Part shown: in pieces, positions 1 to 49,425 of the stretch | Position numbering within the stretch: position 1 is the stretch's first letter | Layout of the letters: each line of letters opens with the position of its first letter | Origin: Psammoneis japonica | Taxonomy: Eukaryota | DNA length: 55,866 nt | Direction of reading: 5' to 3' | Assembly (NCBI GenBank): GCA_008632985.1 | Contig: QPGO01000320.1 | Location: forward strand, 1 to 55,866 | Made by a program: the position numbers and the translations under genes | The notes under the pieces: generated by a model | What the model was told of the DNA's origin: nothing | Database searches by the model: none | The model's input: only the letters and a program-made list of their open reading frames with translations

Positions 1-2195
1 CCTTGGAGAGCCTTGAGGATGGGGAGCACATCCTTCGGGGACAGGAGGGCAGCCGAGATGGTTTGTCCACCAATCTTGGAACACCTTGTCAACATGCATG
101 TAGAAGCACTGTTTTGGTGGCAGAGCTTTGGCAAAAGCATCACTCACATCTGTGCCATGCACACACTTGTTCTTCAAAGCCACCAAAGTGAAAAACAGAT
201 GAGTGCTTGGTTGTTCCACAGACGCTGCGTAAGTCTCATCTCGAGAGTTTGGATGTGGCGCAAACGAGGGCTGCCATCGCATGCTCCACATGCCTTCTTG
301 GCATGATCTAAGTTGTTCTTGATTGGGTGTGACCAAACCCAGTTGAGTGCAGTTGCACCAGTGGGGGCGGGGATCAGTTCACCGAACACACCTTGATCAT
401 TGTACACATCCATTTGTTTGCACTCACTGTTCTCCCAATTGGACCAGTCATCCTGTGTCAGCAGTTTCTGTTGTGTGAGTTTATGCATCACAGGGATGGT
501 GGGTTCCTTCAAGGATGCAAGCTGGTGGCGGATGTCATGGATCTGATCCAGAAACAGTTGGGGAAGGCCAGTGGAGTCCAGGGTGGGAGAAGTGCAGTTG
601 CAAGCAAAGCGCAGTGTGACTGCTGCATTGTCCAAACCAATGTTGTTGACAGCTGCATCCAAGGAGGCAAAATCGTGAACAGGGTGGGAGTTGACGGATG
701 TCAGACATGCTTGTTTGAGTTCGGAGTGCCACTGTGGGATGTGTGTGGCTGGTGAGCCAGGTTGACAATGTCGAAGACAGAGGTGTTGACGGTCGGTGTC
801 AACATCAAATTCAAAGCCGAATCGTGTTTGCAGGAGCCTTTAGTGGGCAGGGGGACATTGAACAAATTGTCAAACAGATCAAAGGACATTACCATGGTGG
901 CCACAGCATCCAAAGACACTGGAGGTGATGAAGCCTGTGGGGCAGCAGTGGCAACAGCTGATGGTTCCGAGGATGCACTGCAATTGCGGTTTCACCAAGT
1001 GGAAGGCCCTGAAGCAAGCTAATCCGGGGGGGTTTAGAGAGTGACTTGTCAGAGGCCAGTGGTGGGCACAGTGCTGGCTGATGGTCCAGGACAATTGGTG
1101 GGGGAGGGGTCACCTGTTGCATTCCCAGATTGAACAGCAGCTGAGGGCCAGGGGTTGCACTGGCTGGGTGAAATGAGCCTCATCGTAGACAGCGTGAGGA
1201 GCCAATTTCTTGTGGCCGGTTTTGGTGTCCATGCATCTGATGTTCTTGTCGGTGGCTGAGCATCCAAGGAATGTGCCATTAAAGGTGTGTTGATCCAATT
1301 TTGCTGGGGCCTTGCCGGGGCGGCGTACACACACGCGGGAGCCAAAAGCACGAAGGCGACACAAATCCGGCACCTTGCCAGTCCAAGCTTGACAGGGAGT
1401 GGTGTCGATGGACGAGTGCCACAGGTGATTCTTGAGGCATGCTGTGTGTGCCAGAGCATCAGACCAACAGGTGGCTGGGAGACCTGAGGCTTGCGAAAAT
1501 CCCACGACTTGGCAAGTTCGCCACCTTGATCCGTGTGCACCACACTGAAGGCCGTGCTTGTGTTTGTGTCATGCTAAGAAAGCATCAACCATTTCCGCAG
1601 GGGGTTTCTTGCTGGCGGTGAGAAAAACCCAGGTGTGCTGGGTACGAGCATCCACAATCAACAAGTGTGAGTTGCATCCGTCACAGGATTGCACGATTCA
1701 TTCCACACAGTCTTTCTTGCATTTCTTCTTTGTTCAGGGTTGCATGTCCGGTCCGGAAGCATGCACACAACCGAAATCCATGTGAAACTGCTCTGCCGGA
1801 GCCAGATCTGCATCATCCACCACAGGGCCCACAGGTGCCCATTTGGGATTGGCATTGCTGCACACTTGGCAGAAGCAATGTGGGTGCGGAATGGCCTAGA
1901 GAGCAGCAGGGAGGCCTTTGGCATGGCATCATAGATGTGCGAGTTGATGCATGCCGGGGTGACCAAGATGGTGGTGCCACAGTTCACTGGCAGAGACACA
2001 TTGCACAGACCTCACTCAGAGTGTGGTCCAAGTTGTCTGCAGGCGGCAAAGGGTCAGGTGATGGCTCCAGTGGTGACAGGAGGGCCATGTCAGCAGGATG
2101 AGCCTCGGAGGTGTGTTCCGGAATGTCAAAAGAACAGCCACGGTCATGTGACATGGGGGCATGCACAGCAAGGGTGCGAAGGGTGCCCTGGAGTT

Positions 2196-2567
2196 CTAGG
2201 TGGGACTTTTTGTGACATTTGCCCCGTAGAATTCTACGTGCGAGCTCTGTAGTTCGTACTTTGGTTAATGCATATATTTATCTTCGACATAAAAAACGGC
2301 CAAGTTTGTAGTGCATCTATCCCTGTTGGTACTCGAAGTTTTGGATAATGCGCCTGCCCTACGCCATTCTTAAGACACTCGAGAATGGCGTAGAAGAAAA
2401 AATATCAAAAGTTGATCAATGGATAGCCTGATAATTGCACTATAAAATCATACAAAATTTCGCCAAAATCATGTAGAAATGTACGTGCGCGACATACGAC
2501 GCGATTCAAAAAACTATCGATGTCACAGTTCAGTGGTACGAGGTCCCACCTAGACCTGGAACGCGTC
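2196..2567. mobile_element. MITE (family A), copy 1, inserted in the Copia element; left TIR truncated
   Basis: AT-rich, non-coding insert. The right end ...tcccacctagacctggaacgcgtc matches the TIR of the 25786-26178 copy. Both subterminal regions align with that copy in opposite orientation (tgtgacatttgccccgtagaattctacgtgcgagctc). Confidence 0.8.
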
Positions 2568-5500
2568 ATCCGTGGTCAAGGGAATGTTGGGATGGAGGTG
2601 CAGTGTAAACCAGAGGCCATTCGCTTGGACCATGGGGAAGGAGCGTTGGAGTGAGTGATCTTGGTCAGTGACAGTGACGATGCCATGACCAGTCTCCTGA
2701 CAGTGTGAAGCATGGCGTTGGTTGCATTGCTCCTTGGACAAGCAACACAGGTGATCTGGGGACAACAGTGTCTCCCCCAGTCCTGGACAACAGAACATGG
2801 GAATGGAGCATGGTTGGCTGTGCAGGTCACGGATGGTGCACATGCGGATGCCATGGGCCAAGACAGACTTGTCTGATGCGGATGCAGTGTTCATGGATTT
2901 TGGGTGGGAAAAATGGCAACAGTCAGAGAGCAGGTGCCAGTGGGATGCAGCACTGCAGTTGGCACCTGTGTCAGCCTGACCATGTGCTTTTGCTGGGGTG
3001 TCGGGAGTGAGAGCACCGATGCTTGCACAGTGGAACATGGGGAGGAGAGCAGTGTCATGTTCCAAGGCCAGGGCCGCAGACATTGTTGTCGGAGGTGGTG
3101 ACGGGGGTTCTGCTGACTTGAATTGACAATCAAAATAATGCAGAACAGCCTGGGGGTCCTCTGTAAATTCCTCGACTGCCGCAGCCCAAGATTCATCAGA
3201 CAGTGATGGGGAGTCATCATCGGGGATGGAGTGTGATGAAGCAGAGTCCGAATCGGTGGATGCAAGGTTGGGAGGATGTCCCGAGTGAGTCCAATCAGGG
3301 AGGTCCTTGGGCTGTGGTGTCACAGATGCAAAAAATTGACTGATCAAAGGAGAGATTGGTGGTTTGGCAGAAGGCAGAGGCATGGAGGTGCCCCGATCAT
3401 CTGCTCCACTGTCATTGGGAAGCTGTTCACTGTGGTTGGGGGAGGTGCACAGCCAGCTCACTGAAAATGTGGTGGTGCATTGGACTCAAACAGCATGTCA
3501 GAAACTGCTTCATCCATCATGAAGTCAAGAATTGCATCCGACACATCAGAGGAGAATACACACACCATTGGACAGGGTTCATCCTTGCGGTGTTGGTCAT
3601 GGGAGTGCCACTTGGACATGAGGGAGGATGCTTTGTTGGCATTGTTCTCAACAAAGTCGGAGACCAAAGCATGGCAAGCAAGTTGAGAACAGTCGCAGTG
3701 GCTGTGGCCACACATGCCACACATGTTGCAAATGAGATCCTTGCACTGTTGAAAGACTTGAGTCTGTTGGTCCAGAGATGAAGAGTTCCTGGGGTGCTGG
3801 AATCTTCCTTGGAAGGCATTGAGGGACCCAGAAGGTTCAGAGGAGGATGCTGGTTTTGGATCAATCTGGGTGATCAGAGACACAAGGTGCAGGTCATGTG
3901 GCAGAGGAGATGATTCACCGAGTTTGTGGGGGTGGCGTTTGAGGAGGGGGACCAAGTCATGTTGGCCATCCGGGATCGCATCCAAAAACTTGATGGATTT
4001 GTTCCTGTCCGTGCATGTGGGAGGTGCCGCAGGATCCACCACAGCAGCTGCCACATTGGCCGCTGCAAAGAAAGTTGTGAAATCTGCCACAAGATCACAT
4101 GGACCACCTTTCCAGGTGGGGAGTTCAGCAACTTTCCTGGTGAGGGCAGGGAGTCCCACAACAGCGAGGTGAGACAGGATGGCACATCCATCCACAGAGG
4201 CTGGACAGATCTTCTTCCATCCATCACACAGGTGGTGGTCCAGGAGAACTTTGTCCTGAATCAATTTTGTGCATAGTTCGATGGCATGCTTCTGGTGTTG
4301 AACATTGCCAACAAGCATGGGGTTGCAGAAATCCAACTGGTCTCATGTGTGAGAGTGTTGGGATCACACACAGGGATGCCAGTCTGGGTGCAGTGAGCAT
4401 GGAATGCCTTCAAGAACATGGCAATGTCGGAGGGATCCATGGCATGAAGAGAAGGGCCCGGCATCTCACCAAAGGTCTGACTGCTGTGGCATGGTTTGGA
4501 GCTGGAAGATTTGCCTGTCATGATGGATGATGAAGTGGACGGAGCCGCAGATGAGGATGGGGACACAGCTGCAGTGAGGTGGTCAGTGAGAGTTTCAAGG
4601 ACCACAGTGAGTTTGTCAGTTGCAGAGGGAGATGTCAAGATGGGGTCTGGTGGTGGCAATGGTGAGACAGATGCACCCGCGGCAGCCTGGGGTGTCATCG
4701 GAGGGGCAGAAGACATCTTGAAGGAATGCAGTTCCTTCTCAACACTTTCCGCACACGTCTTGTGGTCCTGGATGGAGCCCGCCTGCATGCGATGTCAATT
4801 GGGCATCGACACCATCACAGTGGCATTTCAGAGTGTCGGATGGCTCATCCTGGGTGACAAGTCATCAAGGATGCCTGTCATGGTGTTGGCCACAGAAAGG
4901 CTGTTCTTGACAGCATTCTCCATGTCAGCTTTCACAGAATCCAGTCAAGCAAGAAGCACAGGTCAAGTTCATCCATGTGTTTCTTGACATCACCTTCCAT
5001 CCAATTTTGGAAGTTAGTCCTGGCAGAGCTGGCAAGTTCACCAACAGCATGGGCAGATTTGGACGAAGTGGATTCCAGCAGTTCAATGTCAGCCCCAGTG
5101 ACCACGGTGAGGTGTTGTTCTTCAGTCTGAGATGCAGTCATGAGGTGCTAGAGAACGGCAGCTCTGGTGCCCTGAACTGGTGCTTTTGCATCAGACAGGT
5201 AAGGGGCAAGGTGCTTGTCAAGCCTTTGTACAAACTGGTTGTCCCAAGCTGCTGCGGCAGTGTTGGCAGCATTGCCTGCCAGAGCAACAGCCACCTCCTT
5301 GGTGGCTTGGAGTTGGGTCTCAACAGCAGTGCAGAAGGTGTCTGTTGCATGCGCAGTTGCAACATTGGCCACATCAGCATGAGTCTGCTCAATCATGGAC
5401 CAAAGAGAAGCAAGTTCCTGGCAGAGGGATGCGACAGTAGTCTGAGCTGCTGCAAGAGTGGTGCTGTGCTCCTCATTCAGTGCCACAGAGTCCGACAACT

Positions 5501-5847
5501 GCATTTGAAACTGCTGAATGAGGTCTGCTGGAAGCACCAGAGGTGAATGTGGCCAATGGTGAGGGTGAGGTGGGCGGCAGTGGAGGAGATGCGACAACAG
5601 GGGTTTCAGCCACAGCATTGGTTAAAAGGGAGGGACGGATGCCATCACGAACTGCTGCCATGACAGAGGCGCTTGTCAAGGGAGTGTTTGTTGTGGGTGG
5701 GGTAGAGGCATCCGACACTGTTGATGGTGATGTGGCCACTTGAAGAGATGACATGCATTCCTGCCAAGACATTGCTGTCTTGGAACGGGTGCTGTTTGCT
5801 GGCGCCATGGTGATTCAGTGATTGGAGAGCCATGGCACACATGGGGC

Positions 5848-6107
5848 TGTTGGTGTCCGCACCAAGAGCTGCAGCAACAGCAGCAGATGCAAACGACAAT
5901 GGCGCAGGATTTGTCCACTTGCAGCAGAGACGTTGCAGCCACAAAACCAGAAAGAACCCCTACAAAATAGTCTTTGTCATCATCAATGAGGCAGCAGTCG
6001 AAGAGAGTGTTTTCTGGGTGTCGTTGGTTGGCAGAGGGGCCCCGCTTGTGCTGAGCATGAGCATTGCTCACAACCTGATAGAGATCCCAATCTAAGTGGG
6101 AATGACA
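5848..6107 (-). repeat. Candidate 5' LTR of the Copia element
   Basis: ~260 bp bounded by TGTCA...CAACA on the minus strand, just upstream of the gag-like ORF start (5808). No second LTR in the window and no clear PBS. Confidence 0.4.
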
Positions 6108-6140
6108 CGCAGCCACTGAGGCAAAATCAGAGAAGCAGCA

Positions 6141-9122
6141 TTGTCTTGCACCCCCACCCCAGAGCACCAAGCCTGTGCCTTTATGTGCACTTTGCATTTT
6201 CCAGATTTAGCCCACCATGTTGAGGCTTGTGATTTGACACTGCCAAAAACAAATTCTGATGCCTTGCAAATGACCCAGCAGTCAGGCAAAATGTGGGCAT
6301 GTGCCAACAACAACAGCAATGGTCAACACGGCACCAATGACAAAAAATTGTTTGTCCATGCTGTGGCAATTGGAATCTCCGGTTCTCCAGAAAAACCTGG
6401 TGATGAGCCCAAATTGTCTTCCAAGGACTGTGCCAATGCACTCGGCCTGAATCCAAACACTGTTTGTTGCCAAACGAAGCACGGAAAGATTGCCAGAGAG
6501 GCCTTGATTGTGAACAAAGATGGCATCATGTGGTTGTCAGTGCAACCCCATCAGCATCCTCACAAAGTTTCCCCTGAGATCTGCAAAGCATTTCCATCAA
6601 ATCATCCTGACACAGTGCAGTCTCCCAATGCACGAGACATGATTCTCATTAAAGATGAAGATGGAAACAAAAAACAAGTGAACAAATGGTTGTGCAACAT
6701 GTCCATGCATGAGCTCCACAATGACATGTTGAAGCCTGTGGGTTCCAGTGGATTCAAACATGCATGTGGTGCCAATGGCAAGACCCTCACCAGTGACATG
6801 ATGTTTTGCTTTTTGATTCCCAAGCAGTGTCAAAAAATGAATGCAAGTCAATGCAGCATGTGTCAATGCAGTGATTGCACCATTGCAAATTTTTTACAAG
6901 ATGCATTGAACAGGTTTCAAAGGGGGTGCTTTTAAAAGAGATGCAGTTGGAGCAAAAGCATTTGAAAGTTGCAGGTGAGGATCCTGACAACTCTGACAAC
7001 TGTCACAGTGCCATTGGCAAATTGGAGGAAACATTGCGCAGCTGTCAAGAGGAAGCGTTTGGCCCCAATGGCCATCACCTTTTCATCCTAAAGCTCGAGA
7101 TGCAGTTGCAACCATCATTTGCAGCAATGTGAATGGCCAGGATCATCCTCATTGGAAATGCATTTTAGGTGAATGCCAGCTTGCCCATCCTGTCCAACTC
7201 CATTGTTGGGACAGAATGAAAGTTCCAGTGCTCCCCAAGTTTTGTTTCAACTGTGCTTGACTGTAAAAAGTTGTTCCAAGCATGGTGTGTTCATGGAAGC
7301 ATGTCCTGTTTGTGAGGCAGATCCAGATGGGAACAAGGATGCAAAGGTCAAATGAAGGACCTTGTTGACAAGGTTCCGCAAACCAGTTGGAGTCCTTGTG
7401 GAAGAGCACTGCATTCCAAGTTTAAAGAACAAACTGCGTCACCACCTTCCCCACATGGCCATTCCTGGGAACATCATTGCATGGAAATGCGTCGCAAAGC
7501 ATTTCAGTCAATGCCCAACAGCATTTTCACATCTCATTGCTGCTCTGAGCATCAGAAGGCAGAGTTCAACAATCAAGTTCAGAGGGATCATTGTGGCAAC
7601 AACTAAACATTGTTTGTTGAAAGAAGAGTTTGTGATGCCACAAGATGCCACCACCACCCATGCTCACTTGGAAAAGTGTGTCACCTGGTTAAAGAACCAC
7701 AACCTGCATCAGGCATGGCTTGTGATTTGGGATCACACTGATGGTTGTGCCAAACAGTGACGATGTGCTTTGGCACTGCACTTGTTGTCTGTGTTTGGGC
7801 ACAAACACAACATTGTGTTTGACTGTGCCATTGGAGCACCTGGACATGGCAAAGGAGAGGTTGATGGAATTGGAGCCTGCACTGAACCACTCAAACATTG
7901 TGAAATGCAGTCTGCAACTGTTGCAGGAGTCAATGACAAGGATGGGAAAATTAGAGCTGATGCTTTGGTCATGGATGACAACAATGTTGCAGTGGCACAC
8001 AGTTGTGCTTGGGAATGTTTGAAACCACTTGAAAAGAAAAAGAATGCTCTTGGCACAGTTTGCAACAGGAAACATGCCAAGAGGGAATCCCTTCAAAAGT
8101 TGACAGAAAGGTGCATTGTCTGCAGGAAGCTGATGAAGTTCTTGGTTCTTTAAGTAGAGTCAAGTTGATTGGATTGGTGCAAGTGCACACATGCCATTGT
8201 GGCATTGGCACCTTGCACCATTTCCAATTTGAACCTCTTTTTCCCATTGGTTGGGTTGCCATGTGAAGAATTCCTTGCGCTTGTGAAGCCTGCCTGGATC
8301 AGCTCAAACAACCTTGGGTGAACAATGTCGAGCCAACAAAGCAGCCCCGACATGCAGGTGGCAACCAAGCTTGCAAACTCTGGCCCATCTTTGAGGGGCT
8401 GAACGATTGGCAAGTTTGTCAGGTGATTCAAACAAATGAGAGTGATGCGGACAAGGTGCAGTTGGTTCACAAATTGGTGTTGGACTGCTTGACTGAGGAA
8501 ATGGCAAAGGAAATTGTTGCAAACAGCTGTGCCACATTGTCTTGTGAATCTGAGGAGAGCTTTTATCTGCTGCTAATGGGATGAACTGCCCCACAAAGCA
8601 CAGGAGGACAAGGTGTGGAAAGAGTTTGATCCACCCACAACTGTCAAGGCCGGTGAATGGGCTTGCAAGGGAATGCATCTAAATCCTGTTCCAACGGCCA
8701 GAAGATGGCACACTCTGGTGATGCTGAGGAATGTCAGACAAGAATGTTGCTCAAGCACGTTGCAATTGCAACCCTCAGCCTCTCTGGGACTGCCAAGGAC
8801 ATGCAACAGGAATGAGGTTTCACTGCTTGATCTACGTCATTTGAGTGAGGATGAGCATGAAGCAATTCTTGGTGCAATCCAACAGCAGGAGGCCATGGAT
8901 CATTTTGAGGACTGTTTGGAGGAAGAGGAGGAGGAGGATCACGACAGCAAAACTGATGAGTTGGTGGGAGAGAATGATGACAAGGAGGACAGTGCATCAG
9001 TTCACCATGAGGAGGAGGACAAGAGCATGGGAGGGGACAGTGACAGTGACGAGTCTGACAAACAAAATGGCAATGGGAAAATGAACAAACCCTGTGATTG
9101 TCACTTTGCATTGTGCAACTAG
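6141..9122 (+). pseudogene. Decayed DDE transposase, Sola-like (Sola2-type motifs)
   Basis: Frameshifted ORFs contain WLVIWDHTDGCAKQ (~7715-7760) and IGAPGHGKGEVDG (~7830-7870), matching the SDGxxxQY...HGKGxxDG pattern. Cys-rich segments upstream and downstream, and an acidic C-terminal tail. Confidence 0.6.
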
Positions 9123-9129
9123 ACGAACC

Positions 9130-12100: not shown

Positions 12101-12250
12101 CAGACTCTGTCACACGGACATAATCAACAAGCAGGCCAATGTTTGTCTTGACACGGTGCATCAAAACAGCAGCAACATTTTGTTTCTCCTTCACGGCGTC
12201 CCTCATCGACATTCCTGATGGCACCACAACCAACATCAAGTGGTGCTGGT
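9130..12250 (-). pseudogene. Large decayed ORF convergent with the transposase; GNAT-like N-terminal region and papain-like peptidase C-terminal region (tentative)
   Basis: N-terminal part AAVLMHR...LLVDYVRVTES...RGVSPFLIGLAQAI resembles GNAT motif A. C-terminal part QGQNDTCVFSSLASVL...NDHCIALHHGWIFDS resembles the Q-C...H-D papain-fold catalytic set. An acidic linker lies at ~10380-10700. Confidence 0.4.
10179..10260. repeat. 41-bp tandem duplication
   Basis: ccatgaacttggatcaatccaaagca(c/g)ttttttaacccaca occurs twice, head to tail. Confidence 0.9.
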
Positions 12251-12421
12251 TCTTGTCTTTAATGCATTGGTTTGGTTGTGGTCAATTCTCAGAGTTAAAT
12301 GTTTCACAAAAACCAATTGACAACAGTGTTGTGTGGAATGTGTTCCACTTTTCTACGCAAGTGCCTGTCAATGGTTTCCACATGGAATTCTACGCGAAAT
12401 TTGTGCCGAAAACTCGTCACC

Positions 12422-14065: not shown

Positions 14066-14098
14066 GGCAGGCCCAGTCGTCTCACCTGCCTCTACCAC

Positions 14099-17910: not shown

Positions 17911-17914
17911 TGTG

Positions 17915-19912: not shown

Positions 19913-20202
19913 CTTGCCACTTCCCTTAATTGGAGGGTTTTCGCGACCAGAGCGAAGACGGAGGATCGAGTGCTCAGAGAAGGACAGACTGCACCGAGGC
20001 GCATCCAAACCTGAACCCATGCAGACAAAGTGACCCCACCTGGAGAACGTGCAAGAGGTCTTGAGCACTCCCAGTGTCGATGAGAAGCCTTTGCACCAAA
20101 TGAGAATCCAAAAAGATGCCAATGAGACAACGAACACAAACGATTGGCTCACAAATTGTGACAGACAATGATCCAACAGAGCTCTAGATATTTTAAACCT
20201 TT
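19913..20202 (+). repeat. Split direct repeat A1
   Basis: cttgccacttccct(t/c)aattggagggttttcgcgaccagagcg...; near-identical to 28461-28750. Confidence 0.95.
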
Positions 20203-29720: not shown

Positions 29721-29775
29721 CAATGATTTCATTACCAACTTTTGCATTAAGACTACAGCAACTTAAGAAACCACC

Positions 29776-31534: not shown

Positions 31535-31789
31535 TGTTTCGTTGTTGTGGGTGCGATCATCCATCACGCACGGGCTTCTGAATGAGATTATTTGACCGTT
31601 GCAAGTTGGCATGAATTCCCTAAGCCAACGGAAACCCCGCAATAGTCTAGCTACAGTAGTGCACACATACAGCATGGATTTTTGTGATGTTGGTATGATT
31701 TATTCAGCTACAGTTAGTAGGGACTCTTGTCAGTACATATCTTCCTACTACAGTACCGTTAGGAACGAATACAGTACATGTTATGTATG

Positions 31790-34700: not shown

Positions 34701-34905
34701 TAAAAAGCCATTCAATGGCGTGAAACGAGCACTTTGGAAGCTCAAGCTTGTGTCCTGCCACGTCCAGGAGGTTGCACCACAACTGACTGTCTTCCTGCAT
34801 TCAAGGGACTGGGTCCAGTGCATGTGGTTGGGGATCAGCACAGAAGGCATTGACCTGACCTGAAGTGTCATCATCAGAGGCCCGCAGAAAAGGCCTTCAG
34901 TCACA
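31790..34905 (-). mobile_element. Ambal-like LINE 3' fragment (end of RT, RNase H, C-terminal zinc-binding region, 3' end)
   Basis: Minus strand: DDTS, QLWCNLLDVAGHKLELPKCSF, CGYNRN, GGGGF, SDGSVLHFNGTFGW, SSHRAEACG, CDNSSLV, PDWDVI, WIKSHQDD, CTHCQHPLEDGDH, QDKIGWRH. Internal deletions present. Confidence 0.85.
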
Positions 34906-37900: not shown

Positions 37901-40900
37901 GGTTGCAAAGTAGCAAGGAATGAGCTTGGCACTGTCCAAGCTAAGATCATGCCTGATGGTGTGCAGATTCATCCAGACGATTGAAATTGTGTTTTTTGTG
38001 GATGCACCAAGACCGGAGCCCTGTGTTTTTTCATCCTGGACAAGTTGGGGAATGTCGTTTCTGTCAAGTTCATTGCCAACAGCCGGAAATGCGCGGGTGA
38101 ACATTTTGACCAGCATCTGATGTTACCACCGTTGAAGACAATGATGCTGAAGCACGTCACAGCCATAAATTGTGCATGCAAGGAGTTCTCTTTGTTGTGC
38201 AAGTGTCCTCACAGTCCACCAAAAGATTTGAACCACCGCCATCCCTAGAACATGTTTCTCGATGATCATTGCCCACACAAGGAAAAGGCACTCGACAAGG
38301 CTCTGGTTCGATTGTCATGGACAGGTTGGAGTTTCCCACCTCCTGCATTCAGGATTTGTGGTTGTCAATGGGGATCACTGTCCTGTTCCGACTCCGAGAT
38401 GTGCTCGCAATCCACAAGGTTGTCAAGATGGCTGTCATGGCTTCTTGTCAGACTGGATTCCACTGGTTCTTCCACATTGGCATGGAGCACAGGGATGAGT
38501 TGACTGAACCCAGTTCCAATCCTGCACTTGTCTGCTGTCAACCAGCCATGAAGCTGTTTGGCACTGCCCAGCGGCTGTAATTCTGTTGAGACCTGCTGCA
38601 AAGATTCCTCTGCGACTGGCCACAAGAGGAAATCCGATGAATCCACCTGCACAAGAAGCAACCGGAAGCGCACCTGCCAGGTCTCTTTGTCCAACTTGGA
38701 GAAAGAAATTCTCCCCGATGATGCTGACATTGAAGACATTCTTGGTGCAGGAGAATCCTCCGACGACAACGCTGAAACAGACATTGAGGGAGAGGGCGAT
38801 CTCCGGCTCAATTGCCTCGAGATGTCGGGTGTTGTGGATGAAATGGTGGTGGTGATTCTTGATTTGTTGAAATGGATTGACAATCACACCGGCTCACAGG
38901 ATTTCCACCATGCCATGCTGGAGATGCGTTTCTGGCTGGCAATCGAGAAATTCCTGAGAGGAACCAACATCAACAAGTTTTGTTTAATGTTGGTCGTCCA
39001 AATGCTAGTCAGCACAGGAATCATTGTTCATCCCCACCCTGATTTGAGAAATCTTGTTTATCCTGCATCCAAACTTGGCATTGCAAAGACATTCTCGTTT
39101 TGGAATCATGTCCATGTGCTGCATTGTTGTGGGTGTCCCACAGCTCCCACCATTGCAACCACACATGACTGCCAATCATTGCCGCCCAATCTAATCTTTT
39201 GTCTTTATCGGACAAGAAACAATGCAAGCCAGAGGACAACAAATGTGACATTTGTGCCTCACTCCACAAAGAAGAAAAGCACCTGCTGAAGACATGGCGC
39301 CAGCCAATTTCATCTTGAGATCGAAAAACATCTGTGACACTGTGGTGAACGTGGTTAGAATAAAGCAAGTCTTCATGAAACCAACCTTCCAAGGCACACA
39401 ACAACAGGTCTCGCATGGACGGGCGGGAAGTGTGAATGTCATCACATTTCTTCCACAAGCCTTGGAGGAACACAGGCCACCACAATTCATTGTGATCGCC
39501 ATGCAGGACATGGTCCCCATCTTCAAGGGGGTGTTGGCAATGTGTGCAGCAGTCGGGGCATGCAGGATTATGTCTGTGGACAATCTCATTTGTCGGCAGC
39601 AAGTCTTTGACTAATTTCATGGTGCTCACCTTTCATCAAACATTGCGAGACATCAGTTTGGAGTGCACTCTCCAATTAATGGAATTGTGCACTGAGTCTG
39701 ACCATCCACATTTCTCCTTCATGCATTGCACCAAGGCGGGACTGGACGCTTCACAACAAAGAATGGATTTAAACTTCGAATTCACCAACAACGCCTGGAC
39801 GTTTAGCAATGCAGAGCAGTGGGGCATGCAGGGGGCCACCAAGGCATCACCAGTGCACTGACCCTGAAACAAACCTGCCAATTTGTTGGCTCTGACGTTC
39901 AACTTGGCTGGAAACGGGAGGGACTCACATGGAGCATTGTCATCCTGATGACTTTTAATCCACTTCATGTCAACAACGTTGCCTGCTGAGTGTCCATTGA
40001 ATTGGGCCTCCAAACTCTTTAATGAAACAAAGATCTCATGGATGACATCCCAATCCGGCACTAACGTGTTAGCGATGTGGTGCCTTGAGTGACAGTCTTG
40101 TTGCAGCTGAGATTCATCCCCACTTCCAATGGGAGCGGTGGGGGGGAGTGAAAGTTGGCAACGTTGCGCACCAGAGAAGAATTGTCACAGCAAGCGTCCA
40201 CGCCATGAGAAAGAAAGCAATTGCAAAATTCCAGCACTCAAATGAGAAAGCGCAAGATGGATGAGAAGCCACATGCTTCAGCTCGGCATGAGGACAGTCA
40301 AAATCCAAAGACCGGTCCAGCACAATCAACAAGAATCACGCCATTAACCTCTAGCATCCAACCAAAGGTGCCACCAAAATGCAACACAGAGACATCACTT
40401 CCAACCTCTGCTCAAAAATGCTGAAGGGAATCTGCTGTTTTGAACACTGATGCATGCATGGTGAGGTCATTGAACAGGGTAGACTCCCACAGTGACAAGG
40501 ACCGCAGCCATTCACAGAAATCCCCGTGGACGGGAATTGTTGCAGGTGTCGCCACTGGGGACACAGTGGAGCGTAACTGACATCTGCCATCTAAAGTCAC
40601 ACCCACCATCACAGGAGATGCCAATGGAGATAGATCTGGAACCGTTTCTAACTGATGTAGAGTTTCAGCGCAAGCATCCTTGATGGGAAACACTTGACAA
40701 CCCTCATCAGATCGGACATGCAGGAACTCTTTGATGCAAGTGCCACATCCACAATGTGTTGATCATTCTCTCATTGTGCAGGAAGGATGCCAGTGAAATC
40801 CAATTCAAAGTGTGAGCCAATTCGAGCAAGAAAGGATCTCATTGACACAAACCACTTGGACTCAGAGTGTGGGAGTTTAGTGTGAACATCCATCAGAAAA

Positions 40901-43900
40901 CTGGACCTCGTTCCAAGCTGGAATTGCATCCACATGCAACTGCAATGTGGGACAAGGTATGAGGTTGACCTGTGCCTCGCCAGTGTCAGAGGAACTGCAA
41001 ACATTGAGCAATGCCCTGCTCCACATCAAGAGACCAGAAACCACCACCTCCTGGGGTGTGCGGGCTACACAGAACATCCCGCTTGGTGTTGCGGTTATAT
41101 CCGCACTTTGCAAAAACAGTTTGCATTGCCTTTCGTTGAATCTTGAGTAATTCCTTTGGGTGGAAATGGGTGTTCAGAAGGACACAAGCAGTGGAGGCCA
41201 AGCAGCAAGCAAAGCAGTGATCCATGCCTCATGACGGTCCAATGGGCACGACTGGAGAAACAGTGAAATGTCATCACTTTTCGTTTTTAGTGCCTTGCAC
41301 TGAGTCTTTTGAGTGCCTGCTGGAGACTTGTAAAATGGCCCAAAGTCTTGTGTGAGGAACATGCTGAGAGTTGTGTGCTGGATCTTTTGGTGGATCTATC
41401 GGCAGAGTGTGTTTCAACATCCATCTTGTCATTGTACACTCGAAGGCATGGCTCGCCATCTTCAGTAAAAAGCCATTCAATGGCGTGAAACGAGCACTTT
41501 GGAAGCTCAAGCTTGTGTCCTGCCATGTCCAGGAGGTTGCACCACAACTGACTGTCTTCCTGCATTCAAGGGACTGGGTCCAGTGCATGTGGTTGGGGAT
41601 CAGCACAGAAGGCGTTGACCTGATTTGAAGTGTCATCATCAGAGGCCCGTAGAAAAGGCCTTCAGTCACAAGTCATTGAACCCCACCATCTCATGGCATG
41701 CACGCGTGCACCCAGATTGGTGGATCCCACTCCAGATTAAAATTGACATTTGCTTGTTGGAAAGACAACATTTTCATTCATTTTTAATTTGTAGATTAGA
41801 GTGTCAGGCATTTGTTGTGCCACAACACATTTTATTTAATTGACATTTGTTGACTTGTGTGCCAAAATGCCAAGTCACACAGCACTGTCATTCCCTCAAC
41901 TGAGGACAATTGCATTTCGTTCCAGCTGAAAAATGTTCATTTTCATGTTGAACAAGGCCTTTTTGCCAAAATTTCTGCATCTCCGTCCTCATGATGGATG
42001 TTGACAATTCTGCAAAAATTTCCACCCTTTTCTGCTCTCCCCCAAAACCCCCTCCTCTCCACCGAATCACAATCTTTCATTTGCGCCGTTCCCCCGAGCG
42101 ATCCTGTTTGGGGCATTTGTCCCTTCTGCTTGTGATCTGCGGGTCCAATCCCCTGTGGTTTTGGTGAATCTGTGCAGAACCGCAAAAGCAGCATGACGAC
42201 AAGTCCGTGGTTTCTACGTCCTCTGTTCATGCCGCGATGGCCCATGGCGGTTTTCCTCTCCTGCTGTTGCGACCATGCCCCATCTCAAAGTCACGCCCAA
42301 GCAAAAGCAATGTGTCTCTTCTAGCTCTGAATCATTCGGGGATGCCACCAAATGCAAAACTCGCCCATCGCACCGCTTTGTCACATCTCCAGACCACCAT
42401 GGCTTGCTCAATGACATTTTTTTGACATCATCCAATGTGGCAGCAAACCTCTCTGATGACGTCAATCTTAGCTCTGACGACTGCTCCAGTGGCAACAACT
42501 TGTCTGCTCAAGGCAATGATCACGCCAGCACACCGTCTGCATCCGGAGACCTTGACGGTTGTGCCAGTGATCTTTCTTTTCCCAATGAAGACGATGGGGA
42601 TGCCGATTCTTTAGATGGAAGCAATGTTTCTGTTCTTGACCACCATGCCAAAGTGCGCACAAATGGTGTTGTCTGCACCCACATGATGAAGTCCCAATTT
42701 AAAAAAAATCATTGAGATGCAGAACCGCTGCCAGAAGTTCATCAAGACTCACAAATGGACACCCTCCGCTGATCTCATTGCCCTGCCCTTCGTTTGTTAT
42801 AACCACCAGAATCGAGCCTCCCATTTCTTCATGGAAGTGTTGATGGTCAATGATGCAGTTGCCCATTCTCTTGGCTGTAAAGACGGCTTTCATTATGTAA
42901 AAAGTCGTGGCTGGATTTGTTTTCATCGTAAAGATGGGAGGTGTGTTCTGGAGTGCCACAAGCTGGCCGAAACCTTTTCCAATCTTTCCCGATTCAGCAA
43001 ACATCTCCGTGCAATCATTGACGATTTATGAGAGATGACAGTGAGCGAACAAATTGGCAACGACCCATGCTTCCTTCAGCTCCACAGCTTCAGATCCAAA
43101 CTGGATTTTTTTGCGCAATGCCTGAGCATCACTGCCACCATAACGCAATGTTGCTTTCTCCCTCACGTCAATGAAGAGTTCGGTGATTTTCGATGCTGGT
43201 CGACCATTGTTTTTTCCAGCTGCGAAAAGAGGAAACAGTTTGTTCTGTTTTGCAATGATGTTTTGACCCTGATGAACATGGAACAGAAGTTGAAGGATGG
43301 GAAGGTCACCAAGAAGATCCTCACCGATCATCTGGAATGTGTCAAGGCTTACGTTGACACTCATGCCACGGCAAAAGGCATGGCACAAAAATGCCAAGAG
43401 TTGGTTGAGCATGAGCTCCATTCCACCTTCAAGCATTCCTGCAAGGACACGAATCATCTCAAGTTCCACAACCTGGTAATTGTGCGATCACGTGTCCACG
43501 ATCTCATGCATCCACACCTTTCCCGTGCGGCCAAGGCAAAGTTTGTTTCTTCCACCACGAGGAGGAAGAAGAGCAAGGAGTCCTCCAGTGTGTTTGCTGG
43601 TTCTCCAGCACCTCCGCCCACTTCATCCAAGAAAGAAACCAACCGGAATCCTGTTGCTCATCCAAACGGCACCATGGCCGATGCCCCACCATCCGCCAAT
43701 CGCTCCATGAGTGCACTCACCTCCCAGTTGCAACTTTCAGCTGACAACAAAGTTGAGGCATTGTCAGACAGAGAGTCGTCGTTGTCGGGTGAATCATCGA
43801 CTGAAGACCACCCCATCCAGAATGTTCCCGATGCCGGTGCTGTGGGTCCATCCATGGGAGGAGTCACTTCTTCAGCAGCTCCATCGAAGCCAAGCACATC

Positions 43901-45883
43901 GGCCAGCACTACAACTTCCTTGTCAATCGAAGATCGGTTCCCCGGTGGTCATTGTTGCTGCTTTGCATCCCTTTCTGATGTCTCTGGGTGTGCTCCTCGT
44001 GTTTGCACTTTTTATGATCCAGACGACCATGACGATGACAACGAGCAATCTGCCAATCGTGAGTTTTAAACCTGCATCATTCTCCAGTGGACTGTTGCTT
44101 GCTTGACGATCTACAACATCATCTCCATTCCTTTGTGACGACGCAACCACTTCCTTCTGCCACAAATCATGACCGGGAGCTGGTGGTTGTCCCACCCAGA
44201 GCTCAACGTGTTCAGGATGACGCTGCCATTTTGTGCTCGTCCTCCCGTCTTTGGCAGAAACACTTTGGATCTCTCCAAGTTGATGTCGGCATGATTGCCT
44301 GTTTTGTGCTTGAACACGGCTGTTCCAATCCCAATCGTGATGGGAAGATCATGCGCTGCAAGAAAAACAACAAAGATCGGTCCAAGCAGCCAGACAAATG
44401 GGACCGGATCGATTTTGGCTGCAGTGGTCAGTCTCACGATGTGCTCGAGAACGGCGAGAAAGTCCCATCACTGCAAGTCGGTTTTGGAATTTTCGAGAAA
44501 GAAAAAAACGTCGTCATCCGCAATCAGATCAAGTCCATGCTTGCGGATGCACACGATTCCATGCAGAGGTGCCATGATGAGCTAGAGACGGAGTGCTTTG
44601 GCAATCCTCAACCCTGCAACAACACCGCAAGAACTGCAATGCATGGGGCCGCACTTCACACTGGGCTGGGTTGCAAAGTAGCAAGGAATGAGCTTGGCAC
44701 TGTCCAAGCTAAGATCATGCCTGATGGTGTGCAGATTCATCCAGACGATTGAAATTGTGTTTTTTGTGGATGCACCAAGACCAAAGCCCTGTGTTTTTTC
44801 ATCCTGGACAAGTTGGGGAATGTCGTTTCTGTCAAGTTCATTGCCAACAGCCGGAAACGCGCGGGTGAACATTTTGACCAGCATCTGATGTTACCACCAT
44901 TGAAGACAATGATGCTGAAGCACGTCACAGCCATAAATTGTGCATGCAGGGAGTTGTCTTTGTTGTACAAGGGTCCTCATGGTCCACCAAAAGATTTGAA
45001 CCACCGCCATCCCGAGAACATGTTTCTCGATGATCATTGCCCCACATGAGGAAAAGGCACTCGACAAGGCTGGTTCGATTGTCATGGACAGGTTGGAGTT
45101 TCCCACCTCCTGCATTCGGGATTTGTGGTTGTCAATGGGGATCACCATCCTGTTCCGACTCCGAGATGTGCTCGTAATCCACAAGGTTGTCAAGATGGCT
45201 GTCATGGCTTCTTGTCAGACTGGATTCCACTGGTTCTTCCACATTGGCATGGAGCACAGGGACGAGTTGACTGAACCCAGTTCCAATCCTGCACTTGTCT
45301 GCTGTCAACTAGCCATGAAGCTGTTTGGCACTGCCGCCGGAGATGCAGGAGTTGCTCCACACTGTCTGAACCCCAGCGGCTGTAATTCTGTTGAGACCTG
45401 CTGCAAAGATTCCTCTGCCACTGGCCGCAAGAGGAAATCCGATGAATCCACCTGCACAAGAAGCAACCGGAAGCGCACCTGCCAGGTCTCTTTGTCCAAC
45501 TTGGAGAAAGAAATTCTCCCCGATGATGCTGACATTGAAGACATTCTTGGTGCAGGAGAATCCTCCGACGACAACGCTGAAACAGACATTGAGGGAGAGG
45601 GTGATCTCCGGCTCAATCGCCTCGAGATGTCGGGTGTTGTGGATGAAATGGTGGTGGTGATTCTTGATTTGTTGAAATGGATTGACAATCACACCGGCTC
45701 ACCGGATTTCCACCATGCCATGCTGGAGATGCGTTTCCGGCTGGCAATCGAGAAATTCCTGAGAGGAACCAACATCAACAAGTTTTGTTTAATGTTGGTC
45801 GTCCAAATGCTAGTCGGCACAGGAATCATTGTTCATCCCCACCCTGATTTGAGAAATCTTGTTCACCCTACATCCAAACTTGG
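32304..45883. repeat. ~6.8 kb tandem segmental duplication (unit 1 ~32304-39078, unit 2 ~39077-45883)
   Basis: Continuous colinearity. The junction aaacttgg|cattgcaaagac at ~39077 joins the end of the unit (cf. 45876 aaacttggtgc) to its start (cf. 32301 cccggtgttgcgaagac). Unit 1 has a ~38-bp deletion at ~38566. Confidence 0.95.
39079..41670 (-). mobile_element. Duplicated copy of the Ambal-like fragment
   Basis: Colinear, high-identity copy of ~32306-34905. Confidence 0.9.
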
Positions 45884-47890
45884 TGCTGTGAAGCAGTTAG
45901 AGCACTTGGACCCCAACGATGGTGCAGCATGTGCTGACTCGACAATGGTCGAACATGGAATAGAGCATCACGGTGGCTCCAGCGGGGGAATGTGTCCTCT
46001 GTGATTTGTGTGCTCCAAATCATGTTGAAGGCATCATTGGAGAGCATTGTGCTCGTGGTCAGCATGTTTTCATGCTCATTGGAGAGGACACTGCCCCTGG
46101 TGTGAAGCGATGTGGCACTGGACATTGGGGTGCTGTTCCCATCATGACAGAGGGGTAAGTTTCAACACCAAACTGTGCTTTGCATTGGATGTTTTCTAAT
46201 TGCCACTCTTGTTCTTCTACTTTGAAAGAACTAGAGTGCCAGGGGAAGACCTGGGTGATTTGGAAAATCAAGATGCAGCAGCAGAGGAAGAAGAATTTTC
46301 TCAATCCCCAAATGATTTTGGCTCAGATGTTAACAAGTTGGCAGCACAACAAGAATTGAGTCATCCCAAGGACGAGAGAGGCATCCCTCCCAATGGCACC
46401 ACCAAACACTGTGACTCTGAATCACCGGACTTTGACGACATGAGGGAATCACCTCAAGAGAGCCCGGATCTCTCATTGCAACTGAAGAAAACAAAGGTGT
46501 TGTTTTTGTGCATGACACAGATGAACAACATTGATTCTCTGTCATTCACAAATCTGCTTGACGACATCAACGACAACTTGTTCAGTGGAAATTCCAAACT
46601 GAGATCCGACGTGACAAGGATGCTTGCCTGTCGTGACATGGTGCTTGATGTAACCAACCGCACCATTGATTGTGAATTTTACACAGCTTCTCCAAGCGAT
46701 GGTCACAACGCCCATCACCTCAACTGCAATGTGTGCAGTCCTGCATTTTGCAACAAGGTCATCACAAAGTTCGGAAGTGACTTTGAGGAAATCAACTTGG
46801 ATCACTTTTGGTTACAAAAGGGTTGGTTGAGCGACAGATTCAACCCAAGCTTCTTCTTCAGCAGGAAGTTGCCTGAACTGTCAAAATGGATGAAAGTTGG
46901 TGGTGCCATCAGCATCCCTTTTAACATTGAGACATTTCTTTCCTGTGTCTTGCAGGAGGAGTCCATTGTTGAAATGTGCCATGCCCTTTTTCCGGAGGAT
47001 GTGCGCGTCCCATTGCACAAACCACACTGTTGCAGTTATTTCGATGATGAACAGTGCAAACAAAAGCTGAATCTAGATCATGCACACCAGGTGAACAAAT
47101 GCCCAACCGGTGTTACGAGCAGCAAAGCTGGCCAGTCGGTTCGGGAACCTTTTCGCCTTCAAGCCGAAGAGGTTTGGAAGCGGTTGAGCAACAAAAACCA
47201 CCGTGTTGATCTTTGCAAATGGATTCACCTGGTGAAAAAGTAAGAAGACACGATGATGTGGTGTCCAGCCCATCCAGGAACATTCACGCCAATGGTGCCA
47301 CTTCAGCTGGCATTCGTTGGACACAGAAATGGCAAAACATGTTGAGATGGCAATCGCAGTGAAAGTCTGAAAGACCGTCGGATGTAAAAACACATAAGGC
47401 GATGAGCCAGTTCCTCACAAAGAGCAGCTCCCAGCCAATGATTGAGCCATGTTGATGCATGTCGAGTCAAACGATCGTCCCGTTAAGATGCCTCATCAAG
47501 TCGCGGTCACAGCTTTTTGCAGGTGGAGAACAGACGTGTCGCGGGGCATGCAAATGCACATCTGTGTTGTCAAAGGCTTCCAACAAGACAGACGGAAGAT
47601 GAGGCAGGAGATCATGCCTTCGTCCATCCAGAGTCAAGTCCAAATTTATGTTGAAGTCGTGCAACCAAAATTCCATTGCGCAATGATCGTTTCCACGCTC
47701 CTCATCACAGAAGATGCAAGTGTTGGGAACCCAATCTTGAAAATGTGTTTCTCTAATGTGTCTCTGAGCAGGGGTAATGTCATTGCCGCCCCGTCTCTTT
47801 GTGGGCACAATGTGATGACTGCGCATGGACAGGAAGTGTCGGAACCTTGCATGTTGATGAAAATGTCTCCTGTTTGTGTCGATGCTCTTG
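41675..47890 (+). mobile_element. Unclassified decayed multi-gene element (partial copy at ~34910-39078)
   Basis: AT-rich terminus-like region (41720-42080), then a long frameshifted plus-strand ORF (~42230-46158), ORF 46200-47243 and a minus-strand ORF remnant (47250-47890). It carries the same Tyr-to-Cys/His decay as the TEs. No transposase recognised. Confidence 0.5.
46200..47243 (+). pseudogene. Rossmann-fold methyltransferase-like ORF (tentative)
   Basis: KVLFLCM (strand 1-like), HHLNCNV, FEEINLDHFW (motif-IV-like, probably ancestral LDYFW), LPELSKWMKVGGAISIPF (LxxxLkpGGxxxx pattern). Confidence 0.35.
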
Positions 47891-49425
47891 CAGAACTCCA
47901 CGTCCTGCAGTCGAACATAACGAGTTGATTCGAATTCTCCTGCTGTTGTCCTAAACTTTGCATGAATTGGTCCTGTCTCTTCCAATGCTGGAACCGCTCC
48001 AACTGGCAACACCCGAGCATGAATCATTGAATGGGTTCCACCGGAATCAAGTAACACCCGCATCACGCGCTTGCTTTCCTTATCTTGAATGAATCGCGCC
48101 GCGAATGAGGTTGTAGGGACCACACTTAATGGTTTCATTGGTTTTGTTTTTGGGGTTGGTACAGCGCACTCAATTCCCACATCATCTTCGTCATTCACAG
48201 CATAATTTCCGAAATCGTCATCATCAAATAAATCAGCAGCGTGTGCACAATAATCATCAATGCAATCAGTGCAATCATCAAACATATAAAAATCAGGAGC
48301 GACACACTCGGACGACAGCTCTTCAAGCTCATTGGGTCAGTGTCGACCGCGTCCCGAGAAGTGACCACCAGGTTGAAAACTTCCCGTTCCACCTCGATTC
48401 TCTTAAGGCCCTCCCATCGAATCAAGATGATGGCTTTCAGCAGACCAATCATTGGGAGGAGCCGTTCTGGCCGGATTACCGTAACCGCCGCCATCTGCAT
48501 TGGTTCGGGTGTCGTTTTGACATTGCATGTAAGAGCCACCATCATCATGATGCTCGCCGCCATTGCCGCCAGAGTTATAGTTTCCGCGACCACCGTAGTT
48601 TCCTCGGCCACCACCACGACCTTGACAGCCACGGCCTTGCCAACCATGACCTTGCGCTCCGCCATAACCATGACCTCCACCTCGACCGCCACCTCGACCG
48701 CCACGGCCACCATGTCCGCGACCTCCGCGATCAGTTCTTGGACGGCAGTTGTTAGAGTCGGGATTCATGACGCAATCTTTCCACTTGTGATTGTGAGCAT
48801 GCAAAGGACATTGAGATTCTGGGTCAATACGATTGCCTTTCTTCTTGGCAGAGCCGCCACCTTTCGACTGTCCGTCTTTGTGCTTCTTCGAAGTCTTCTT
48901 GTTCCTGTCTGCAAATGATTTCTCCGTGCTCATGTACGTTACAATTTCCGCTAGCGCATCATTTCCAATCATGCGTCCTGCTCTTGCACACATCTCGCGC
49001 CACGACAAAGGGAAGCTATCAAAGATCATCTTCTTCTTTTGGTTCTGAGTGATAACTGGATTATTTCCCGGCAACTTGTTCGTGTATCACACCAAGGTCT
49101 CCATTCGATCCGCATGTGCCTGTACTTCAACATCATGTGGTTTTTTAAGAGAGAGCAAGTATTCAATCATCGTGTCACGCGCTTCAGTTTCACAACATGA
49201 CAAATAAAAATGAGCCAATTCTTGGTCAAAACAAGCCACCATCTTTTGCGCATTCGGAATCGCCATGGTGAGATTGGACCATTTATCTTCAGCGGCATCT
49301 GTCAACACTTCCTCGAAATTATCAAATAGTTCTTCGCCTGTAGTGAATTCAAGTTTTGCAGCCTTCGCTCTCAACATTCTTTTCTCTTGTTTCGTAAGCC
49401 TGTTAGTTGTGTCGTTGTTTCTCAT
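47890..49425 (-). mobile_element. Truncated Ty3/Gypsy retrotransposon (gag + aspartic protease)
   Basis: gag with FDNFEEVL...KKPHDVEV...ETLV*YTNKLPG...FDSFPLSW, knuckle CPLHAHNHKWKDC and a Gly/Arg-rich tail. Protease MRVLLDSGGTHSMIH...FRTTAGEF. RT and integrase are absent. Confidence 0.8.

Follow-up and report, generated by a model that had tools for sequence, protein, structure and literature searches.

The transposon relics in a 55,866-nt stretch of the diatom Psammoneis japonica (contig QPGO01000320.1, assembly GCA_008632985.1; hereafter the window) have most likely undergone a DNA-level transition process that is specific to the dinucleotide TpA and of the same kind as the one reported from the chlorarachniophyte Bigelowiella natans (Mettrop et al., bioRxiv 10.64898/2026.01.13.699255). 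Within this window, the action of a TpA-directed mutator on transposons is well supported. In the process that we envisage, the A (or the T) of 5'-TA-3' would be altered, so that TA would become TG or CA depending on which strand was hit. It would act on both strands of resident elements, mostly in transposon or silenced DNA, and ordinary CpG decay would run alongside it, separably, in most of the same elements. A preliminary description of this DNA had proposed a repeat-targeted TpA-to-TpG/CpA hypermutation of unrelated transposons, and had regarded it as a mechanism not previously described. The scarcity of TA, its direction, and the breadth of elements affected were confirmed, while the repeat targeting and the novelty were not.

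The dinucleotide content of the window was expressed as observed/expected (o/e) ratios, overall, in 110 sliding windows of 1 kb, and for the transposable element (TE) regions, defined as positions 1-29400 plus 32000-47400 (44.8 kb total). In the window as a whole, TpA has an o/e of 0.236, CpG of 0.575, TpG of 1.52, and CpA of 1.51, and the other twelve dinucleotides all lie within 0.92-1.17. The TE regions contain 487 TA where 2757 are expected (o/e 0.18) and 1472 CG where 2841 are expected (o/e 0.52), together with TG at 1.58 and CA at 1.55. Only these four pyrimidine-purine (YpR) dinucleotides are abnormal; AA (1.13), TT (1.17), and AT fall within 0.96-1.17. Among changes at A:T pairs, the effect is restricted to the TpA dinucleotide. 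The deficit of 2270 TA plus 1369 CG roughly balances the surplus of 3165 TG+CA, which makes TA loss the bigger contributor. The lowest values, 0.02-0.05, were found in 1-kb windows at 3-4.5 kb, in a Copia relic, and the scarcity of TA noted in the preliminary description is thus borne out and is extreme. The depletion also reshapes the reading frames. TAA and TAG together number ∼500 per strand vs ∼1200-1280 TGA, each being ∼five-fold rarer than TGA, and the scarcity of the former two leads to a surplus of long stop-to-stop open reading frames (ORFs), of which 73 have at least 150 aa and are spread over all six frames.

As had been claimed, the elements affected are unrelated, and comprise a Copia relic, two long interspersed nuclear element (LINE) relics, a tyrosine-recombinase-type (YR) retrotransposon, and unclassified repeats. 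The features of the window, which include a miniature inverted-repeat transposable element (MITE)-like insert with terminal inverted repeats (TIRs), are as follows (RT, reverse transcriptase).

1-2191, minus strand: Copia relic, integrase and RT part, CoDi-like, truncated by the window start; TpA o/e 0.12-0.18.
2192-2557: MITE-like insert of 366 bp with 15-nt TIRs, sitting inside the Copia relic; TpA not depleted.
2558-5600, minus strand: presumed gag/protease (upstream) part of the Copia relic, putative; the most TpA-depleted stretch, o/e 0.02-0.17.
5601-12600: unclassified high-copy repeat; TpA o/e 0.07-0.15, CpG 0.11-0.28.
12647-17906, plus strand: LINE-A relic, endonuclease and RT; TpA o/e 0.22-0.31.
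17907-19912: unclassified repeat or relic; TpA o/e 0.06-0.15, CpG 0.06-0.54.
19913-28951, plus strand: putative YR retrotransposon (DIRS order), 9 kb, with split direct repeats.
29600-32100, minus strand: gene island, a 387-aa ORF (29776-30939) with upstream DNA; TpA and CpG normal.
32308-39078: tandem-duplication copy 1 of a 6.8-kb composite unit, TpA-poor, holding LINE-B (34890-32110, minus strand).
Within 32308-39078: unclassified element, for which the earlier label "Sola-like" was not confirmed.
39081-45883: tandem-duplication copy 2, 95.7% identical to copy 1, holding LINE-B' (41655-39081, minus strand).
45884-47400: unclassified TpA-depleted DNA; TpA o/e 0.12-0.18.
47467-49425, minus strand: putative retroelement-like gag/protease ORFs, less decayed; TpA o/e 0.27-0.60, CpG ∼0.9-1.05.
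53389-55140, plus strand: host gene ITPK1 (inositol-tetrakisphosphate 1-kinase), 583 aa; Pfam Ins134_P3_kin, 4.8e-37.

The direction of change was read from protein homologues. For the LINEs, 5093 homologues were found, 150 were kept, and 45 full-length ones were used; for Copia, 57 diatom polyproteins were used. A residue was taken as conserved when 60% or more of the aligned homologues, numbering at least 15, shared it, and pooled counts combine LINE-A, LINE-B, and Copia, with LINE-B' omitted as a copy of LINE-B. The conserved Tyr residues fared as follows.

LINE-A: 20 conserved Tyr, 6 kept, 5 now His, 4 now Cys.
LINE-B: 6 conserved Tyr, 0 kept, 0 now His, 4 now Cys.
Copia: 12 conserved Tyr, 2 kept, 3 now His, 4 now Cys.

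Pooled, 8 of 38 conserved Tyr are retained, which is the lowest retention of any residue; for all residues other than Tyr and Arg the figure is 527 of 713 (Fisher p=6e-11 vs Tyr). Residues with A/T-rich codons that lack TA, namely Phe, Lys, and Asn, are retained at 70 of 91 positions vs the 8 of 38 for Tyr. The replacements of Tyr include Cys (12 times), His (8 times), Phe (5 times), Asp (twice), and Ser (once). Cys or His has thus replaced conserved Tyr at 20 of 38 positions, and Tyr has replaced conserved Cys or His at 0 of 40 (p=1.7e-8). The changes are polarised from TA to TG/CA, in the direction that had been proposed. Conserved Arg is retained at 24 of 59 positions (4 of 28 in the Copia relic alone) and has changed mostly to Gln, His, Cys, or a stop, which is a CpG signature. 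The same shift is visible in overall composition. The relic ORFs contain 0-1% Tyr and 8.8-14.5% Cys+His, and the medians in 228 homologues are 3.4% and 5.5%, respectively.

The preliminary description had built its case on nine peptide strings in which Cys or His stands where Tyr was thought to be conserved. All nine were located at definable coordinates, and at seven of the eight comparable positions Tyr is the majority residue in homologues. In the Copia relic, Tyr is found at the Cys of FLGCSAT in 56 of 57 homologues, of IRCMD in 57 of 57, and of HTACLKN in 52 of 57; TPCQAW is ambiguous, with Phe in 37 homologues and Tyr in 20. In the LINEs, Tyr is found in 29 homologues for CGHEPF, in 14 and 17 at the two positions of SSHRAEACG, and in 21 for LHCTGHGSG, where 13 have His. 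The remaining two strings, FFHQF and SLHCHRRG, belong to the YR element. Had the intact relatives already carried Cys or His at these positions, the substitutions would simply be inherited; the relatives carry Tyr, and their TpA o/e is 0.54-1.00. This range comes from 80 related metagenomic Copia loci (median 0.75; TG 1.24, CA 1.20), which were found by a search keyed on two intact peptide motifs that favours intact copies. The Copia family thus has an ordinary baseline, from which the relic, at 0.02-0.18, departs widely.

The loss of TA went on in place, on DNA; it continued once the 6.8-kb unit had been duplicated in tandem, and it also sets apart the YR element's split repeats. Because each tandem copy is a composite unit, the pair can have arisen only by DNA duplication. 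The two copies differ by 240 mismatches, 210 of which are transitions; 105 are CG↔TG/CA, 27 are TA↔TG/CA, and 24 are double sites with TG in one copy and CA in the other. Each copy retains 66-70 TA vs ∼1345 TG+CA. When polarised by LINE homologues, these differences comprise 6-7 losses of TA vs one change from TG to TA. At two ancestral Tyr codons, one copy now has Cys and the other His, and further polarised losses turned a T-preceded Met codon into Val and the Leu codon CTA into CCA; a change of ATA to ATG is a weaker case. From the tandem-copy counts, we estimate that the per-site rate at TpA would be ∼20-40 times that of sites outside YpR, and similar to the CpG rate here. The split repeats of the YR element should have been identical at insertion, and their differences therefore arose afterwards. 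Among 22 differing positions, six are TA↔TG/CA, eight belong to four TG↔CA doubles, six are of the CpG type, and two are other. At all six TA-type differences, in both repeat pairs, the TA stands in the upstream copy.

These observations bear on the idea that retroelement transcripts or their cDNA were edited from A to I by an ADAR/ADAT-like enzyme and the changes fixed by reverse transcription during retrotransposition. Every identified element (Copia, the LINEs, and YR) is indeed a retroelement, and adenosine deaminases favour a 5' U, as noted in the available part of the preprint 10.64898/2026.01.13.699255. RNA editing, however, does not account for losses that followed a duplication of DNA or that separate two split repeats. 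It is also at odds with the near equality of the strands (12 Cys vs 8 His; TG 1.58 vs CA 1.55), the absence of strand-coordinated runs, and the equal depletion of unclassified repeats and non-coding parts. We regard RNA editing as improbable, and a process acting directly on resident DNA as the better account.

Selection against UA in transcripts was considered separately and ruled out, since the relics are dead and their codon positions are equally depleted. In LINE-A, TpA is low across codon positions 1-2 (0.18), 2-3 (0.27), and 3-1 (0.32) alike, which points to mutation and not to selection.

In most of the TpA-depleted elements CpG decay co-occurs (CpG 0.11-0.6), and across the 110 windows TpA o/e is correlated with CpG o/e (rho 0.70) and anticorrelated with TpG+CpA (rho -0.75). 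The covariation of the two depletions would suit a by-product of CpG methylation, in which the T:G mismatches left by deamination of 5-methylcytosine (5mC) are passed to an error-prone, polymerase-eta-type patch repair that mutates nearby A:T pairs at WA. Polymerase eta prefers WA motifs. WA includes AA, though, and AA (1.13) and TT (1.17) are undepleted. The changes at Tyr are mostly transitions (20 Cys/His vs 5 Phe, 1 Ser, and 2 Asp). In addition, the YR element has lost TpA strongly (0.12-0.38) at a CpG of 0.67-1.0, which shows that TpA loss is separable from CpG decay. Taken together, these points make the repair by-product very improbable, and we retain a TpA-specific process that runs beside CpG decay.

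The depletion has sharp limits. The number of TA per 200 bp is 7-22 inside 29.6-32.1 kb and 0-4 in the flanking TEs, and the edges of this gene island are sharp to ∼200 bp and coincide with element ends. Positions 29901-32300 have a TpA o/e of 0.76 and a CpG o/e of 1.03, and the gene at 29.8-30.9 kb with its upstream DNA has a TpA of ∼0.75-0.9. The 500-bp island at 2101-2600, around the MITE-like insert, has a TpA of 0.79 and a CpG of 1.04, and the island at 49.4-49.9 kb has a TpA of 0.81. Over the 56 kb, the gene island and three other islands stand at 0.76-0.81, with ITPK1 at 0.32-0.55. The two host ORFs, taken by codon position, have a TpA of 0.32-0.87 and a CpG of ∼1.0-1.4. ITPK1 accounts for the low end of this range, with ∼0.45-0.55 overall, 0.32-0.55 by codon position, and CpG of ∼1.0-1.3. 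The statement that TA is normal in the two host genes is thus only approximately correct, ITPK1 being well above the TEs yet below 1.

Were there a genome-wide mutation bias against TpA, neutral DNA would lose TpA and selected sequence alone would keep it, and the values for ITPK1 (0.32-0.55) and for 50-53 kb (0.12-0.51), which are under the usual ∼0.75, could be read in this way. Some non-coding DNA in the window keeps its TpA, however. Upstream of the 30-kb gene, 1.2 kb of non-coding sequence has a TpA of 0.74-1.12 by phase, normal values are also seen in the islands at 49.4-49.9 kb (0.81) and at 2101-2600 (0.79), and the edges of the gene island match element ends within ∼200 bp. A genome-wide bias as the whole explanation is therefore unlikely, and a process that distinguishes transposons from their surroundings is preferred. 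What directs the process to transposons may be chromatin state, small RNA, or foreignness. Ultraviolet (UV) photoproducts at TA were set aside, since UV TA photoproducts are not TE-specific.

Repeat targeting in the sense of repeat-induced point mutation (RIP), with copy number as the trigger, was not supported. The summed contig depth in the bin 2002-2668, which covers the MITE-like insert, is 48175 vs ∼30-75 in its flanks, and this insert is probably young, very abundant, and has escaped TpA loss. The Copia relic has a depth of 36-74 vs a baseline of 30-35 and is now low-copy. Since the low-copy Copia relic is the most depleted and the high-copy MITE-like insert is spared, present copy number is not predictive. 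The TpA-loss footprint follows the history of each element and is not a steady regional property.

To compare the assembled sequence with reads, we used one public run, X1, which contains 73% of the sampled words of the window; no RNA run was among the matches listed, and runs X2 and X3 covered almost none of the window. Six Logan contig pieces of this run (767-2122 bp, k-mer depth 30-35) show 0 differences from the window, and the contigs with at least 85% similarity (n=2507) differ from it by 744 transitions vs 188 transversions. An artefact of sequencing or assembly, caused by consistent misreading of a modified base at TpA in repeats, could draw on the fact that the library type of X1 is unrecorded and that the run may come from the assembly's own sample. 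Such an artefact is hardly credible, given that contigs at a depth of 30-35 match the window without a difference over 0.8-2.1 kb and that former TA are fixed as either TG or CA, where a symmetric modification would give strand-dependent conflicts between reads. The relics also show CpG decay, stops, and other substitutions, and their paralogous copies differ mainly by transitions (744 vs 188).

The TpA sites that survive carry a flank preference. The ratio xTAy/(xTGy+xCAy) is lowest at ATAT (0.012) and at ATAC/GTAT (0.013), and reaches 0.125 at TTAA. The surviving TpA are fitted by a multiplicative model, with the vulnerability of the target A ordered by its 3' base as T > C > G > A. The 12 Cys and 8 His outcomes, together with the interspersed TG and CA, indicate that both strands are affected.

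Several points weigh against a TpA-specific process acting on transposons. The evidence comes from one 56-kb window, with two genes and three short non-coding islands as controls, and the lowish TpA of ITPK1 and of the DNA at 50-53 kb (0.3-0.5) leaves room for some genome-wide TpA bias. No strand-coordinated runs of TG or CA were detected in TE segments (z -0.45 to 1.34; the 51 Copia loci that served as controls have a median z of -0.85), and a processive single-strand deaminase is accordingly not supported. The polarity after the tandem duplication is based on 7-8 sites. None of the 80 metagenomic Copia loci has the TpA-loss signature, in a search that favours intact copies, which suggests that TpA loss is not a general feature of diatoms. 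The reads of run X1 may be those from which the assembly was built, and would then give no independent test of the sequencing chemistry. Finally, all identified elements (Copia, LINEs, and YR) are retroelements and no DNA transposon was confirmed, so that the DNA-level argument depends on two sources, the tandem copies and the split repeats.

The individual features were identified as follows. A tblastn search with the 57 diatom Copia polyproteins matched positions 1-1988 on the minus strand, and Pfam placed SH3_retrovirus at 1113-1568 within the Copia relic. The MITE-like insert is bounded by an inverted repeat at 2192-2206/2543-2557, which is 93% complementary. Beyond the insert, 2558-5600 has no match in Pfam or among the Copia homologues; its ORFs contain 0-0.3% Tyr and ∼11.5% Cys+His, and the Copia relic probably extends on to ∼5.6 kb. 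The repeat at 5601-12600 has a read depth of 500-2400, or ∼20-70 times baseline. Neither Pfam nor Protein Atlas identified anything in it, and for the ORF at 10573-11544 the best Protein Atlas score was 0.75, without a credible match. The adjacent unclassified stretch at 17907-19912 has a depth of ∼1500 to 18.7 kb and 39-64 beyond.

LINE-A is a single frame of ∼1680 codons with 12 in-frame stops (8 TGA, 3 TAA, and 1 TAG) and no frameshift or indel, and it aligns to homologue P0121 in one tblastn high-scoring segment pair spanning residues 16-1151. Of the six TGA stops in the aligned part, four fall at positions at which homologues most often have Arg, as would be expected of CGA>TGA. The YR element has its repeats at 19913-20202 (A1), 28277-28461 (B1), 28461-28750 (A2), and 28767-28951 (B2), a layout of A1...B1-A2-B2 that we take to be a hallmark of Ngaro/PAT elements. 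The RT-like motifs FFHQF (24643) and FVDDF were spotted by eye only, and Pfam found neither an RT nor a YR domain in the element. Its 3' end (28.4-29.5 kb) is poorer in TpA and CpG than its 5' end, which indicates that decay is uneven within one element. Pfam was applied to 22 long ORFs and to 150 of the 239 ORFs with a length of 90 aa or more, ten of the other 89 being among the 22; in the transposon relics this search returned SH3_retrovirus (1113-1568) and a weak match to Exo_endo_phos, and nothing else. Rfam gave no match on the window, and Tandem Repeats Finder gave one 41-bp array.

The 387-aa ORF at 29776-30939 apparently represents an intact host gene between transposon relics. It has no Pfam match, and we noted an acidic Asp-rich stretch, hydrophobic C-terminal segments, and a Tyr content of 6.2%. 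The ORFs in 47467-49425 (47467-48336 and 48403-49086) likewise have no Pfam match; a DSG protease-like string and Gly/Arg-rich CCHC-like strings were seen by eye, and the region may be a younger element at an early stage of TpA loss. The DNA at 49888-52478, which separates ITPK1 from the last transposon, has a patchy TpA (0.12-0.51) and contains three weak local direct repeats with 71-78% identity. ITPK1 shows 44-64% identity to its best relatives, of which those with a name are diatom proteins (Odontella aurita, Cyclotella, Thalassiosira, and Seminavis), so that the gene by itself marks the host as a diatom; Protein Atlas added no informative taxonomy for it.

A TpA-erasing mutator of selfish DNA has been observed directly only once so far, in a chlorarachniophyte (the 2026 preprint). 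If our reading is true, the diatom footprint indicates that the process is no oddity of one species and extends it from viral inserts to retrotransposons, and it suggests either an old origin within SAR (stramenopiles, alveolates, and Rhizaria) or repeated invention. It is quite conceivable, if somewhat short of probable, that TpA-to-TpG/CpA editing is an enzyme-driven genome defence found in two or more lineages of SAR (Rhizaria and Stramenopiles). Such a defence would have gone near completion on several families of this diatom's transposons and would act on chromosomal DNA independently of cytosine methylation, with short or young insertions escaping. Diatoms would then offer a tractable system, marked by a strong natural footprint, for the first natural eukaryotic mutator of A:T pairs in DNA, be it an adenine deaminase or a thymine oxidase. 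Since diatoms can be transformed and reproduce sexually, the search for an enzyme is testable in them. There are also consequences for annotation. Nearly all the relics are missed by Pfam, gene finders would over-call genes from the long spurious ORFs, and TpA-depleted relics distort transposon ages that are based on CpG or Kimura distances.

As for the chemistry, we tentatively place first an enzymatic deamination, in DNA, by which the adenine of TpA would become hypoxanthine and which might be carried out by an ADAT2/TadA-like or other deaminase. The available text of the B. natans preprint proposes an ADAT2-like protein as the candidate there, and its discussion notes that adenosine deaminases are known to prefer a 5' U (10.64898/2026.01.13.699255). 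Our second choice, a rather unlikely one, is that thymine at TpA is oxidised to 5-hydroxymethyluracil (5hmU) or 5-formyluracil (5fU), which would mispair with G. According to the accessible portions of a 2024 PNAS article (PMC11572971), 5hmU marks repeats in dinoflagellates along with 5mC, and in Crypthecodinium cohnii an older observation gave it a preference for TA and TC dinucleotides. The dinoflagellate preference for TA makes thymine oxidation a live alternative. The likeness to the present case lies in a thymine modification on repeats, and the difference is that 5hmU is an epigenetic mark for which those portions report no mutational footprint.

Among known systems, RIP of ascomycetes shares with the window dense, dinucleotide-specific transitions without indels and in-frame stops in colinear ORFs, as in LINE-A. 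Its direction is the opposite, as had been pointed out, for fungal RIP converts CpA to TpA and enriches TpA (RIPCAL and Neurospora abstracts), whereas here TpA is down ∼five-fold and CpA is enriched. RIP is also triggered by duplication in the sexual cycle, and here a low-copy relic is the most depleted. CpG decay through deamination of 5mC likewise ends in TpG and CpA, and has occurred in these elements. It cannot, however, remove TpA or turn Tyr into Cys/His, in agreement with the earlier statement, and as an explanation of the whole signal it fails, since 2270 TA are missing besides 1369 CG and the loss also occurs at a CpG of ∼0.7-1.0. The ADAR and APOBEC enzymes of animals provide a precedent for hypermutation of selfish elements by deaminases, and adenosine deaminases prefer a 5' U. 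They differ in acting on RNA or replicating cDNA and in leaving strand-coordinated clusters, whereas the changes here were made in place, on both strands, and without runs. For diatoms themselves, a mutation accumulation (MA) study of Phaeodactylum describes, in its accessible part, a GC>AT bias in which the CG, CC, and TG contexts are mutagenic.

The closest counterpart is B. natans, where integrated nucleocytoplasmic large DNA virus (NCLDV) and virophage DNA undergo TpA-specific hypermutation. As given in the available sections of the preprint (10.64898/2026.01.13.699255), 231 of 302 nuclear mutations in MA lines fell in the integrated NCLDV region and the virophage region, and 230 of these 231 were A>G or T>C, all at TpA and yielding TpG or CpA. 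The rate in hypermutable regions was ∼6e-7 per site per generation, and in the NCLDV region only 11 of 15 lines showed hypermutation. The same sections describe 124 clusters of TpA-poor, CpA+TpG-rich windows, and an enrichment of TpA-depleted coding sequences for RT and DDE domains. It is this report of a TpA-only, A:T>G:C hypermutation that overtakes the earlier view of an undescribed mechanism. The sections available to us do not mention diatoms or stramenopiles, and in the literature we found no TpA-to-TpG/CpA hypermutation reported in diatoms or elsewhere besides this preprint. The two cases agree in that TpA alone is affected, giving TpG or CpA by strand, and in that the direction is A:T>G:C. 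As far as the 56 kb of the window goes, they also agree in that foreign or selfish DNA is affected beside sharply bounded DNA of ordinary TpA, and they share the lasting TpA-poor, CpA+TpG-rich footprint. They differ in host, a rhizarian (chlorarachniophyte) there and a diatom (stramenopile) here, and in the kind of evidence, de novo mutations in MA lines there and inference from relics here. In B. natans, mainly single-copy viral insertions are affected, moderately (Rho TpA 0.45), whereas here at least five transposon relics stand at 0.02-0.3, near saturation, and CpG decay co-occurs. The Psammoneis window is thus best filed as TpA hypermutation of the B. natans type, in a different supergroup lineage, on retrotransposons, and near saturation.

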